From IMG/VR virus record IMGVR_UViG_2663762948_000005: a DNA stretch of 9,310 nt; one strand, given 5' to 3'. A program made the translations under genes and the position numbers. The DNA comes from a virus (lineage: Duplodnaviria; Heunggongvirae; Uroviricota; Caudoviricetes). The notes beneath the pieces are model-generated. The model ran no database searches. It saw only the letters and a list, made by a program, of their open reading frames with translations, and was not told where the DNA came from. This document shows positions 1 to 7,779 of this stretch, piece by piece; the first letter of the stretch is position 1; each line of letters starts with the position of its first letter.

Positions 1-423
1 TCACTTCAATAAATACCGAACATCCCCCTGATAAAACGACAATATGCGCTGCATAACTTCGCTCTTCCGGCACTCGCGACAGATTATGTTTAGGCGACTG
101 TCGTAGCGACGTATTTCTCCGTCAGGTAATGACCAGATAAGGTCCGGATCAACCACAACCGGTTTCTTCAGCTTTGCCCTCGATAATTTTTTGCGGGCAT
201 TTTGCCAGTCTTTACGAGCCTGTTCAGACGGGAATAACCCGTAGCCAGAATTGTATACATCGCCACTGGCAACCAGCTCTCTGGCCAGAACGCTCATCAG
301 ATATCTTGTTGCCCCAGTTTTAGCTTCCAGTTGTCGTAACGTCTCGCGCCCACTCTGGCGTACGAGTTCAAGAACCTGCCCTTTAATTTTTTCCCGCTCT
401 TCTTGTGTAAAAACTTTTGCCAC
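1..423 (-). CDS. hypothetical protein, 140 aa, immediately downstream of the replication-initiator-like gene
   Basis: Complete ORF on the minus strand with stop at 1-3. GTG start at 421-423 is preceded by AGGAGG (complement of 428-433), a 4-nt spacer. No recognisable Walker motif, so it is not the DnaC-like YdaV expected at this position in K-12 Rac. Function unknown. Confidence 0.55.
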   Translation of the reverse strand: MAKVFTQEEREKIKGQVLELVRQSGRETLRQLEAKTGATRYLMSVLARELVASGDVYNSGYGLFPSEQARKDWQNARKKLSRAKLKKPVVVDPDLIWSLPDGEIRRYDSRLNIICRECRKSEVMQRILSFYQGDVRYLLK

Positions 424-463: not shown

Positions 464-1534
464 TTACCCCCTGAAGCCCGGCGGAATTTCGTTATCCGGT
501 TCAGAAATATGATTCACACAACGCTGGTTGTTCGTGCCGCTTACCGGGAGCAACCAGGGGTTCTCAAAATTCCGGTCCGGTCCAAAAAACGTCGTCGCTC
601 GCTGAACAAATTCCGTTCCCGTTTTCCCGGTAGCCGCCAAGTATCTTGCGTAACGCCTCACGCCATCCAGCATGGCCTCTGGTGGCACCCCCTCGCGTAA
701 TCTGGCCTTCCAGGCACTGAAAGCGGATTTCTTCGGGTTTGCCCCAGCACGCAACGGGTACTCCCGCCAGACCTGTTCGAACACATCCGGATAATCCACT
801 CGTCCCACAGACTGCCCGGTGTTTTCCGGGACTACCCGATCGGCTTCCCGCTGAATGGCGGAATCGGCTTCAGGCTGCTGCAGTTGGTGTGATTGCTCCG
901 CCCTTGCGGTCATCACCTGCTGCACAGCGCCCGAATCGGCTTTCAGCGCATACGCTGAATCGGCTTCCGGTGTCGTGCCTGCTGGCTGACCAAGATTGAC
1001 GGTCTGAACATCCCCTGCCTGGTTCGTGGCGTTTTTTATGCCATGGACCATAGTGTTTTGATCTTCTTGATCTGTATCTTTATCTGTATCTTTATCTGTC
1101 GTGACTCGTCGTGACATGTGCGTGACATTTCGTGACGCGCCGTGACAATCGCCATTTTGTTCCCGCTTTCTTTCCCTCTCTCGCTGCGCCCTCTTGCGCT
1201 CTGCAGGAGATTTTGCGGTTTGCGAAATATTGCCGTTGTCCTCTTTAAGCACCTGGCGTTTTTCCCATCCAGTGATTAAATCACCATCAAGTACCCGCCC
1301 CTGCATCGTCTGCAAAATTGAATCAATTACCTCTTCTGTCACGTCGAGCGCACTTGCCAAATCTTCTGTCGTGACATCAATGTGACCTCGCGTGACATTT
1401 CGTGACGCGCTCACCAGGAGGTGGATATACACTGCCATCACTGTTGCAATTGGCTGTCCTGACACCCTGGCAATTGTTCGCCACTTAGGGTCATTTGGCA
1501 TGTCATGCCATAATCTGAGCCAGGCGTTAGCCAT
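464..1534 (-). CDS. putative phage replication initiation protein (lambda O analogue, YdaU position), about 356 aa
   Basis: Long minus-strand ORF; the track starts it at GTG 1540, but ATG at 1532-1534 with GAGGTGA just upstream is the more likely start. It has an N-terminal domain, a charged low-complexity linker (ERKRAQRERERKREQ...DKDTDKDTDQEDQ) and a conserved-looking C-terminal domain. It sits downstream of ydaS/ydaT-like genes as in K-12 Rac. Family assignment is from memory and uncertain. Confidence 0.65.
   Translation of the reverse strand: MANAWLRLWHDMPNDPKWRTIARVSGQPIATVMAVYIHLLVSASRNVTRGHIDVTTEDLASALDVTEEVIDSILQTMQGRVLDGDLITGWEKRQVLKEDNGNISQTAKSPAERKRAQRERERKREQNGDCHGASRNVTHMSRRVTTDKDTDKDTDQEDQNTMVHGIKNATNQAGDVQTVNLGQPAGTTPEADSAYALKADSGAVQQVMTARAEQSHQLQQPEADSAIQREADRVVPENTGQSVGRVDYPDVFEQVWREYPLRAGANPKKSAFSAWKARLREGVPPEAMLDGVRRYARYLAATGKTGTEFVQRATTFFGPDRNFENPWLLPVSGTNNQRCVNHISEPDNEIPPGFRG
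1061..1146. repeat. iteron-like array A: two 12-bp tandem units (ATCTGTATCTTT) followed by five CGTGAC hexamers spaced 10-11 bp
   Basis: Read directly: CGTGAC at 1100-1105, 1110-1115, 1121-1126, 1131-1136 and 1141-1146, preceded by atctgtatcttt at 1070-1081 and 1082-1093. Lies inside the initiator gene's linker-coding region. Confidence 0.7.
1361..1410. repeat. iteron-like array B: four (C)GTGAC hexamers spaced 10-11 bp; shares an exact 20-bp repeat with array A
   Basis: Hexamers at 1370-1375, 1381-1386, 1391-1396 and 1401-1406. The 20-mer cgtgacatttcgtgacgcgc occurs at 1121-1140 and again at 1391-1410, 270 bp apart. Both arrays begin with atct(t)ctgtcgtgac. Confidence 0.7.
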
Positions 1535-2321: not shown

Positions 2322-2404
2322 AGAATACCCATAGGTAAACAAAAGTCAATACCCACAGGTTGTTTACCTTGCAGTAATCGCATCTATTATTTACCTATGG
2401 ACAA
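2322..2404. promoter_or_regulatory. divergent promoter/operator region between ydaS-like and racR-like genes with three TACC-N4-GGTA sites
   Basis: Sites TACCCATAGGTA 2326-2337, TACCCACAGGTT 2350-2361 and TACCTATGGACA 2392-2403. Putative leftward promoter on the minus strand: TTGACT (complement of 2344-2349), 16-bp spacer, TATTCT (complement of 2322-2327). Putative rightward -10 TATTAT at 2385-2390, 6 bp before the racR ATG. Confidence 0.5.
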
Positions 2405-2816
2405 ATATGAATTTAGACGACAGCAACTCATCAAAATTCGTGATGAGAAATGCGATGGTAAAGCGGTTAACGTGGCCAGAAAGATCGGGCGCGAGCCTTC
2501 TTATGTATCAAGAATGTTGTACCCAGAGGGGAAAAAGGGAAAAAAACGGATCGCTGATGATATGGTGGAGATTATCGAAGAGTCCTTTGGGTTACCCCGG
2601 GGATGGATGGATGGTATCGTTTCATCATCAACGAACACAGCCTCCAGTTATGAAACAAGGGTTCTAACGCCACGACAACGTATTTTTTTAGATCTCTTAG
2701 ACGAACTGCCAGAAAGTGAAGCGGATAACTTATTAAAAACTCTTGAAGAGAAAAAACAGTATTACAATATGATCTACGAAGAAATCCGTAAAAAGAAAGC
2801 ACAAAACGCATCATAG
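2397..2816 (+). CDS. racR: RacR-like CI-type prophage repressor, 139 aa
   Basis: ORF with N-terminal HTH-like segment (AVNVARKIGREPSYVSRML). Divergent from the ydaS/ydaT-like genes and flanked by palindromic operator-like sites. No Shine-Dalgarno before the ATG, so it is a candidate leaderless transcript. Identity with K-12 RacR is not verified. Confidence 0.65.
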   Translation: MDKYEFRRQQLIKIRDEKCDGKAVNVARKIGREPSYVSRMLYPEGKKGKKRIADDMVEIIEESFGLPRGWMDGIVSSSTNTASSYETRVLTPRQRIFLDLLDELPESEADNLLKTLEEKKQYYNMIYEEIRKKKAQNAS

Positions 2817-7334: not shown

Positions 7335-7353
7335 GGCGGTGTAATGCACCGCC
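7335..7353 (+). other. 7-bp stem / 5-nt loop hairpin immediately after recT
   Basis: ggcggtg (7335-7341), loop taatg, caccgcc (7347-7353). A TTTTTT run (7365-7370) lies 11 nt downstream, not adjacent. Possible attenuator or RNA-processing element in front of ralR. Confidence 0.3.
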
Positions 7354-7382
7354 AACTTGAAATATTTTTTATGAGAAAAATT

Positions 7383-7577
7383 ATGAGATATGACAATGTT
7401 AAACCATGTCCATTTTGTGGTTGTCCATCAGTAACGGTGAAAGCCATTTCAGGATATTACCGAGCGAAGTGTAACGGATGCGAATCCCGAACCGGTTATG
7501 GTGGAAGTGAAAAAGAAGCACTCGAAAGATGGAATAAACGAACCACTGGAAATAATAATGGAGGTGTTCATGTATAA
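7383..7577 (+). CDS. ralR: RalR (Lar), restriction alleviation protein / DNase toxin of the RalR-RalA type I TA system, 64 aa
   Basis: ATG at 7383; the track start at 7344 is an over-extension. Translation MRYDNVKPCPFCGCPSVTVKAISGYYRAKCNGCESRTGYGGSEKEALERWNKRTTGNNNGGVHV matches my recollection of K-12 RalR. Has a CxxC...CxxC zinc-ribbon-like pattern. Confidence 0.75.
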   Translation: MRYDNVKPCPFCGCPSVTVKAISGYYRAKCNGCESRTGYGGSEKEALERWNKRTTGNNNGGVHV

Positions 7578-7779
7578 AATTACCGCCACTATTGAAAAGG
7601 AAGGTGGCACTCCTACTAACTGGACAAGATATTCAAAATCTAAACTAACGAAATCAGAATGCGAAAAAATGCTCTCAGGTAAAAAAGAAGCAGGCGTTTC
7701 CAGAGAGCAGAAAGTAAAACTGATAAATTTTAATTGCGAGAAACTTCAGTCCTCGAGAATTGCATTGTATTCAAATTAA
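7570..7779 (+). CDS. ydaC: YdaC, small Rac prophage protein, 69 aa
   Basis: ATG at 7570 with GGAGG 5 nt upstream; overlaps the ralR 3' end by 8 bp. Translation MYKITATIEKEGGTPTNWTRYSKSKLTKSECEKMLSGKKEAGVSREQKVKLINFNCEKLQSSRIALYSN matches my recollection of K-12 YdaC. Confidence 0.7.
   Translation: MYKITATIEKEGGTPTNWTRYSKSKLTKSECEKMLSGKKEAGVSREQKVKLINFNCEKLQSSRIALYSN

Follow-up and report, generated by a model that had tools for sequence, protein, structure and literature searches.

The 9,310-nucleotide stretch of DNA analysed here (IMG/VR virus record IMGVR_UViG_2663762948_000005, Caudoviricetes; hereafter the window, meaning the whole stretch) holds a gene for a phage replication initiator in which two arrays of a short repeat, the hexamer CGTGAC (GTCACG on the coding strand), and an AT-rich tract are embedded (Table 1). 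A first-pass annotation, made from the sequence alone, had proposed these repeats as a candidate prophage origin. With 99.9% identity, the window matches a prophage that occupies the ttcA site of Escherichia coli strains such as CP53. The genes of this prophage start in the order intR, xisR, rcbA, ralR, recT, recE, racC, ydaE, kilR and sieB, followed by the cI-like, cro-like and YdaT/cII-like genes, and judging from this gene order the window is part of a Rac-type lambdoid prophage. The initiator gene is placed after the cro-like and cII/YdaT-like genes, opposite the cI-like gene. In the PHROG database, the entire 356-amino-acid product of this gene matches phrog_3729 (“replication initiation protein”, E 4e-257), which bears out the initial assignment as a phage replication initiator. 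The N-terminal (amino acids 1-160) and C-terminal (amino acids 200-356) parts also have PHROG families of their own. The labels of the related families are replication initiation protein, DnaD-like helicase loader and replisome organizer, with weak matches to two “replisome organizer” families (E 7e-6 and 2e-4), and close homologues are named “phage replisome organizer” in RefSeq. The same gene is found at 97-99% identity in the sequenced phages Tritos, Evi, vB_EcoS-689R5 and others.

Table 1. Position of the repeats, the AT-rich tract and the surrounding genes in the window
Feature	Position	Strand	Remarks
DUF977 / “Ren-like” gene	1-423	-	After the initiator gene
Replication initiator gene, 356 amino acids	464-1534	-	Open reading frame and translation; phrog_3729; RefSeq names
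Inverted repeat, 13-bp stem TGGTTCGTGGCG...GCCATGGACCA	1020-1050		Directly beyond the AT-rich tract
AT-rich tract, purine-rich on coding strand	1055-1100	-	Encodes DKDTDKDTDQED; three 12-bp units and two GATC sites
Cluster A, five GTCACG iterons on coding strand	1100-1146	-	Encode linker amino acids 130-145 (CHGASRNVTHMSRRVT)
Exact 21-bp repeat, copy 1 (two iterons and spacer)	1120-1140		GCGTGACATTTCGTGACGCGC
Single inverted iteron copy	1338-1343	+	Coding strand GAC GTG ACA, D64-V65-T66, turn of the helix-turn-helix
Cluster B, three GTCACG and one GTCACA	1370-1406	-	Encode amino acids 43-55 (ASRNVTRGHIDVT)
Exact 21-bp repeat, copy 2	1390-1410		GCGTGACATTTCGTGACGCGC; 270 bp (90 codons) from copy 1
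YdaT/cII-like gene	1606-2031	-
cro-like gene	2015-2296	-
cI-like gene	2397-2816	+	After sieB in the prophage gene order

As had been proposed, nine phased hexamers form two clusters, at 1100-1146 and 1370-1406, with a spacing of 10 or 11 bp throughout. In cluster A, CGTGAC starts on the + strand at 1100, 1110, 1121, 1131 and 1141 (spacings of 10, 11, 10 and 10 bp). In cluster B, it starts on the same strand at 1370, 1391 and 1401, with TGTGAC at 1381 (spacings of 11, 10 and 10 bp). The whole window contains 10 copies of CGTGAC for 3.3 expected, and only one of them lies beyond the clusters and the inverted copy. The 5-mer GTGAC is not enriched in the whole window, and it is the clustering that is non-random: none of 500 dinucleotide-preserving shuffles produced a five-copy run of one hexamer at 10/11 bp, the longest shuffled run having two copies. 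In the 46-kb genome of Tritos, no GTCAC cluster was found besides the two inside the initiator gene. The exact sequence shared by the two clusters was described in the first-pass annotation as 20 bp long, with copies 270 bp apart; the separation is correct and the length is 21 bp. The argument that this sequence stands in different protein contexts is weaker than claimed, since the two copies are in a common reading frame and both encode ASRNVT. However, all three reading frames are used by the hexamers of each cluster (C-H-G, A-S-R, N-V-T, M-S-R and R-V-T); the repeating unit is therefore DNA, not peptide. Along the gene, the N-terminal domain with cluster B (codons 43-55) comes first, then the inverted copy (64-66), cluster A (130-145), the AT-rich units (146-158) and the C-terminal part.

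We used synonymous sites in distant homologues to measure the constraint on the repeats. A protein search returned hundreds of homologues of the N-terminal part in Enterobacterales, Pseudomonas, Bordetella, Achromobacter, Chromobacterium and other genera. Besides sequenced Escherichia phages, family members are carried by phages or prophages of hosts such as Pseudomonas, Aeromonas, Ralstonia and Bordetella, and the domain was found in no well-studied model phage. A genome scan seeded with the degenerate peptides WHDMPND and [AG]S[RQ]NVTRGH, assumed to be codon-neutral, gave 39 loci. The test set consisted of 22 non-redundant genes encoding S[RQ][NS]VTRG...VT (gene GC content 0.42-0.68), chosen by peptide only; a choice by DNA motif gives the same 22 sequences. 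In these genes, four-fold third positions elsewhere in the N-terminal domain are saturated (1.3-2.0 bits), while the codons of cluster B are fixed: Val47 GTC, Thr48 ACG, Gly50 GGT and Val54 GTC in 22/22 genes, Ser44 TCA and Thr55 ACG in 21/22, Ala43 GCG in 20/22 and His51 CAC in 21/21. When the cluster B codons are pooled, valine is GTC in 44/44 cases (22% elsewhere) and threonine is ACG in 43/44. Similarly, Val65 in the inverted copy is GTG in all 18 homologues that retain a valine at this position, and the spacer codon Arg49 is free to vary (1.77 bits). The linker cannot be aligned among the 22 homologues, yet each of them has three to five copies of GTCAC(G) at the same relative place. Adjacent copies are 10 bp apart in 92 of 124 cases and 11 bp apart in 26 (118/124 together), and the unit consensus is (T)GTCACG with free flanks. 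Because the hexamer codons are frozen while other synonymous sites are saturated, the codon evidence places the two phased arrays and the adjacent AT-rich tract under strong purifying selection at the DNA level, in prophages of both Gamma- and Betaproteobacteria. The DNA-level constraint put forward in the first-pass annotation thus holds across deeply diverged homologues, and the comparison it had named as able to overturn it, whether homologues that keep the protein also keep the phased hexamers, came out in its favour. The linker also contains a motif, CH..SR.VT.DKD, conserved at the amino-acid level amid otherwise variable sequence; this conservation is best explained, from the codon pattern, as imposed by the DNA.

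The tandem 12-bp AT-rich units reported beside cluster A were found at 1065-1100 (TCTTGATCTGTA, TCTTTATCTGTA and TCTTTATCTGTC). The tract that contains them has the lowest GC content of the initiator gene (0.30) and the least stable 40-bp duplex of this gene (-43.4 kcal/mol, for a window mean of -53.3 and a standard deviation of 4.1). An AT-rich tract is conserved next to the linker array in 22/22 homologues, even where the gene has 68% GC: AGATAAAGATAAAGA, exact or slightly varied, stands three bases after the last linker hexamer in 20 of them, and AGATTAGATAAGA in the two others (L020 and L035). In this set, the AT-rich segment has a GC content of 0.15-0.40 (0.42-0.68 for the genes) and its coding strand is usually 75-88% purine. 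The codon bias is also strong, with a GAT:GAC ratio of 76:4 in the tract versus 211:246 elsewhere, and an AAA:AAG ratio of 65:11 versus 148:168. The stretch GATCTGTATCTTT has a loose resemblance to the 13-mers of oriC. Two GATC (Dam) sites are present in the tract, at 1060-1063 and 1069-1072, and two others at the equivalent place in ydaU of E. coli K-12 (L011, 4618-4636); a control of the candidate origin by Dam/SeqA is possible. Whether the inverted repeat directly beyond the tract is part of the origin is uncertain, because it is located in an exchangeable C-terminal module; it is replaced by unrelated sequence in L006-L010. Initiator variants with other C-terminal modules (L006-L010 and L017) have a different palindrome, CGCGCACGTGCGCG, at the equivalent place, and the ori of lambda has a palindrome at the corresponding position.

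Close relatives show how the arrays change. Among E. coli variants that are 83-87% identical in nucleotide sequence (most of them O157:H7 prophages), no hexamer is altered, while the 4-5-bp spacers vary. Cluster B has six copies in these variants; the 21-bp gain corresponds to two iterons and seven codons, so that the reading frame and the helical phase are both kept. In E. coli O157:H7 17B6-2 (L008, initiator at 149-1202), cluster A has gained a sixth copy by 10 bp and the gene is annotated as a frameshifted pseudogene. Compared with the 21-bp gain of the O157 prophages, this case indicates that the turnover of iterons is limited by the reading frame. It also bears on the idea that the repeats are a low-complexity coding repeat (VT-rich or DK-rich peptide) made by slippage and devoid of any nucleic-acid function. 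The copy numbers of the hexamer and of the 12-bp unit do differ among E. coli strains, and the encoded linker is predicted to be disordered, as slippage would have it. However, hexamers spread over three frames make no peptide repeat, the synonymous sites are frozen, and a 10-bp gain that destroys the reading frame involves a DNA unit, not a codon unit; we regard slippage as extremely improbable.

Initiator variants cease to be similar just past the AT-rich tract. The N-terminal domain with its repeats is joined to at least three C-terminal modules, each with a downstream partner gene of its own, encoding a DUF977 protein, a DnaC-like ATP-binding protein or a lambda-P-like protein. Such a boundary would be expected if, by analogy with lambda O, the N-terminal part reads the origin and the C-terminal part recruits the helicase machinery. 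This position at a module boundary, together with the AT-rich tract, fits a DNA element better than repeats acting in RNA, as messenger RNA structure or as sites for an RNA-binding protein or a small RNA. It is true that all direct copies are on the transcribed sense strand and that the inverted copy could pair with them. However, the 371-nt RNA has an unexceptional predicted folding energy (z = -0.86), the region has no Rfam match, and a strict period of 10/11 nt is the pitch of duplex DNA, which leaves a role in RNA with hardly any credibility.

We then looked for the repeat words used in the wider family. In sub-families with another peptide in the N-terminal domain loop, the same peptide and the same DNA word are found in the linker. 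Besides GTCACG, we identified a GTAACG class (L033, L037, L043 and L045) and a CGAACGC class (L040, L042, L044 and L048). Each of the three words recurs in the two arrays of its gene and is nearly missing outside them, and the three classes segregate with the sub-families of the N-terminal domain. For instance, L036 and L037 have nearly the same loop peptide (NPVTD..GVT..VTVT), with GTC ACG in the former and GTA ACG in the latter almost throughout; read from the codons, this difference is a concerted synonymous switch. The distribution of words among homologues demonstrates, at the sequence level, that the two arrays co-vary in word with each other and with the initiator sub-family. In two members, L047 (a Serratia metagenome-assembled genome) and L049 (Pantoea sp.), a fusion after about amino acid 105 joins the N-terminal domain to another segment, YVYYVA..VGIS.NPWAR, and neither the iteron arrays nor the AT-rich tract is present. 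Because these elements are absent, the domain may have been put to another use in these two members. The fused segment is reminiscent of GIY-YIG nucleases.

To place the arrays on the protein, we used an AlphaFold2 model built from a 69-sequence alignment. The predicted local distance difference test (pLDDT) score exceeds 90 for most of amino acids 11-90, and the N-terminal domain (amino acids 1-95) models as a winged helix-turn-helix. Helices are predicted at 3-14, 16-25 and 29-45, followed by a loop (46-55), a helix (56-63), the predicted recognition helix (67-77), a beta-hairpin wing (78-88) and a basic helix (110-128). A disordered linker then extends to about amino acid 245, where the C-terminal domain begins (amino acids ~245-327, with the tail IPPGFRG). 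Cluster A and the AT-rich tract encode amino acids 130-158 of this disordered linker, between the winged-helix domain and the C-terminal domain. Cluster B encodes the last residues of helix 29-45 together with the loop leading to the helix-turn-helix; the pLDDT dips there. The length and content of this loop differ across the family, and as the length varies by up to ~22 residues, the loop appears tolerant of change. Residues 64-75, with part of the predicted recognition helix, differ between iteron classes; otherwise, the differences in the N-terminal domain mainly concern the loop. A Foldseek search of the model against PDB retrieved only generic winged-helix regulators (E > 0.8) and no specific structural relative, and PDB contains no sequence relative of the initiator. 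In Pfam, no family was found at E <= 0.01, and across the Pfam, NCBIfam and PDB sequence searches the sole hit was a weak one to the C-terminus of DnaT, in which the last 24 residues (amino acids 333-356; 464-535 in the window, - strand) match the last 24 positions of the model.

Origins built into an initiator gene are known in other phages. The ori of lambda lies inside gene O, and in lambda and its Shiga toxin (Stx) phage variants iterons and then an AT-rich tract occupy the middle of the gene (PMC7466680). As in lambda, the repeats and the AT-rich tract described here are in the middle of the initiator gene, at the junction between an N-terminal DNA-binding part and a C-terminal partner-recruiting part, and the gene comes after cro-like and cII-like genes, some relatives being followed by a lambda P homologue. 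As in lambda and the Stx phages, the iteron copy number differs among relatives, with matching insertions in the protein. The iterons of lambda are dyad-symmetric sites of ~19 bp, bound by O dimers and roughly two turns apart. In contrast, the core is here only 6-7 bp long, (T)GTCACG, in direct repeats every 10-11 bp with non-conserved spacers. The second array, within the coding sequence of the DNA-binding domain, and a downstream gene of the DUF977 type instead of P are further differences; we know of no iteron array in the DNA-binding-domain loop of lambda O that would resemble cluster B. Unlike lambda O, the initiator has no Pfam O-family or PDB match, and it is set apart on those searches and on the PHROG labels. 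Membership of the lambda O/ori-lambda family was ruled out by the lack of a Pfam match, the short direct repeats and the second array. Thus, the lambda-like layout suggested in the first-pass annotation stands for the succession of N-terminal domain, iterons, AT-rich tract and swappable C-terminal domain, and cluster B in a winged-helix loop is a departure from it.

A second precedent is oriL of phage SPP1, located in gene 38 (replisome organizer G38P), with direct repeats as well as an AT-rich unwinding element in the organizer's own gene (PMC6316719). The initiator gene of the window has the same two elements inside it, and “phage replisome organizer” is the name given to its RefSeq relatives. 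The initiator has no significant Pfam match to Phage_rep_org_N, with weak PHROG matches to replisome-organizer families; the repeat sequences are unrelated. Moreover, the second origin of SPP1 (oriR) is ~13 kb away, whereas the second array is here ~230 bp away in the same gene, with no other cluster in Tritos. In the origins of Staphylococcus aureus pathogenicity islands and phage-inducible chromosomal islands, two sets of short iterons flank an AT-rich region, and the origin is separate from the pri-rep genes (PMC6092414). Short iterons in two sets and an AT-rich melting region are shared features; in contrast, both arrays are here within coding sequence, the AT-rich tract is outside the pair, and the initiators are unrelated. 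Iteron plasmids (P1, pPS10, R6K and others) have a winged-helix Rep protein, direct repeats, an adjacent AT-rich element and extra control sets of iterons. Their iterons are ~17-22 bp long, ~two turns apart and intergenic, whereas those described here are 6-7 bp long and intragenic, and there is no detectable match in sequence or fold beyond a generic winged helix. The likeness to iteron-type origins lies in direct repeats whose word co-varies with the initiator sub-family.

We also compared the locus with the Rac prophage of E. coli K-12, as the first-pass annotation had suggested comparing it with the Rac origin, oriJ. Both prophages share their type, the ttcA integration site and the order cI-like, cro-like, YdaT and initiator genes. 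However, the replication module of K-12 Rac is made of ydaU (DUF1376) and ydaV, and the N-terminal domain of YdaU is unrelated to that of the window initiator, the only common parts being DKDTDKD in the linker and the C-terminal tail IPPGFRG. The K-12 Rac replication region contains no GTCACG array. Instead, the ydaU linker has GATGTTSAA repeats, four direct and one inverted (L011, 4263-4580), followed by a GATAAAGATAC / GATC tract as in the window. Two isolated GATGTTSAA copies (4266 and 4351) are also present in the part of the gene coding for the N-terminal domain of YdaU. An identity of the window element with K-12 oriJ was therefore ruled out, YdaU being a different initiator with its own repeats; oriJ is thus of no use as a reference. 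From its sequence, the ydaU repeat region can be proposed by inference as oriJ. The ydaU repeats hint that an arrangement in two parts also exists outside the family of the window initiator. Since an unrelated initiator gene, ydaU, has its own repeats followed by a AATAAAGATACAGATAAAGATCT tract, the AT-rich tract looks like a shared unwinding module and a recombination point of replication modules. The tail ...NEIPPGFRG is common to the initiator and K-12 YdaU (13/19 identical), and both proteins may use it to dock to a replication protein of the host.

We consider it probable, from the comparison of these sequences, that the region is the vegetative replication origin of this prophage, bound by its own initiator and built into the coding sequence of this initiator. 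The best reading of the sequence data would be a lambda-style origin in the initiator linker, with iterons and an unwinding element, the other iteron array being located in a winged-helix surface loop; the particular role of cluster B is much less sure. In such an origin, monomers of the winged-helix domain would bind the hexamers head to tail, one per turn, on one face of the helix. The linker array, as the main binding array, would set the initiator complex beside the AT-rich tract, which would melt, and the C-terminal domain would recruit a helicase-loading partner (DUF977 protein, DnaC-like ATPase or lambda-P-like protein) according to the C-terminal module. The upstream array and the inverted copy at 1338 would bind the same initiator, either to act jointly with the linker array, by looping or wrapping ~230-260 bp of DNA in aid of unwinding, or to exert feedback on transcription through the initiator gene.

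Alternatively, the arrays might be operator or roadblock sites for autoregulation by the initiator, or for the YdaT/cII-like or DUF977 protein, with the origin elsewhere. Cluster B is only ~130 nt into the gene and well placed to block the rightward early transcript, and the data are compatible with binding by any of these proteins. A sigma-70-like match also overlaps cluster A on the + strand, but such promoter-like matches are at background frequency (3 found for 1.9 expected). Operators would leave the adjacent and equally conserved AT-rich, purine-rich tract without a role. In addition, the repeat word follows the N-terminal domain sub-family, whereas the neighbouring regulators and downstream partners are swapped freely, and the position at a domain boundary agrees with the mapped origins in lambda O and SPP1 gene 38 (PMC7466680, PMC6316719). 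An operator function in place of an origin is thus unlikely.

Some observations weigh against the origin. No experimental evidence of binding or of origin firing for this initiator family was found in the literature searched. A scan for DnaA boxes found none, with fewer matches than expected by chance; none are required by origins of the lambda type. The AT-rich tract is the stability minimum of the gene and not of the window, as 7350-7770 is less stable. Fisher tests comparing the hexamer codons with the remaining occurrences of these amino acids in each gene gave p-values from 2e-4 to 2e-25 that are only indicative, the sequences being related and their independence overstated; the saturated neighbouring sites are the proper control. 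A fixed helical phase between the two arrays was ruled out, since the distance between them varies among homologues (first-copy offsets of 240-350 bp), which disfavours a rigid loop. Finally, in a low-GC sub-family (L039, L041 and L046), the linker sites are kept and the N-terminal domain array is not clear. As these members appear to keep the linker site without cluster B, their sequences suggest that cluster B may be dispensable for firing.

This last point raises the question of whether cluster A and the AT-rich tract alone are the origin, cluster B being either a passive copy due to gene conversion or slippage, or DNA in which only the peptide SRNVTRGH..VT matters. Besides the sub-family that seems to be without cluster B, such a view can draw on the common reading frame and common peptide of the two clusters, and on the conservation of R49-G50 in the iteron-free homologues L047 and L049, which indicates a partial protein-level constraint on the loop. 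A constraint on the protein, however, cannot fix the third positions of GTC, ACG, TCA and GGT at 95-100% in genes of 42-68% GC while the R49 codon varies, and unselected conversion would not last over such a depth. Moreover, the 10/11-bp phasing is kept and copies are gained as 21 bp, preserving both frame and phase. A passive cluster B is very unlikely on these grounds. An origin in two parts, with one of its iteron arrays written into the surface loop before the helix-turn-helix of its own reader protein, is a tentative and rather doubtful proposal. Apart from this, the upstream array may act as a partner needed for looping or enhancement, or as a brake for autoregulation, in a class of phage origin very common in E. 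coli.

Several observations concern the prophages and phages that carry the module. In Tritos (complete genome), the initiator is the sole annotated replication gene, with an adjoining gene for a DUF977-family hypothetical protein. The Tritos annotation has no helicase or helicase loader, and the DUF977 gene occupies the position of lambda P. Modules of this type may load the host helicase by an uncharacterised route. A 50.9-kb circular “plasmid” of P. aeruginosa (CP124671.1, L051) is a lambdoid phage genome in which a DnaB-like helicase gene comes after a family member; the gene table distributed with it does not list the initiator gene. A search of plasmids for a replicon based on this initiator alone returned nothing but large records, probably of chromosomes, and circular Pseudomonas phage genomes of 51 kb. 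The window also contains a full-length match to the RalA small RNA, the antitoxin of the RalR toxin (Rfam RF02694, 225 bits; 7576-7754, - strand), as would fit a Rac-type prophage.

No mapped origin or published description of this element was found in the literature searched. Its plan is known from lambda and SPP1, and in this respect the finding is ordinary in principle; the element itself is well defined and undescribed. Of the 5426 complete E. coli genomes searched, 2186 contain the N-terminal domain with embedded repeats, and one genome can have as many as 6 copies. It is one of the commonest replication modules of E. coli prophages. The region thus provides a testable origin for a very common module, O157:H7 prophages included. 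The finding would also explain the amino-acid conservation of a “disordered linker” and of a loop in a folded domain as imposed by DNA, not by protein. It calls for caution in annotation and recoding, as the hexamer codons cannot be changed synonymously and one 10-bp iteron gain has already made a pseudogene. Moreover, the three natural specificity classes, as little as one base apart, would allow the study of initiator-origin divergence and of module recombination at the AT-rich tract. Because one iteron array is inside the coding sequence of the loop, the sequence of the sites and the peptide of the loop change together by construction. This coupling would be of real interest if the loop takes part in recognition: if it contacts DNA or a neighbouring protomer, a change of iteron word would alter the site and its reader in a single mutational step, and these phages would have a built-in route to new, mutually incompatible replication specificities.

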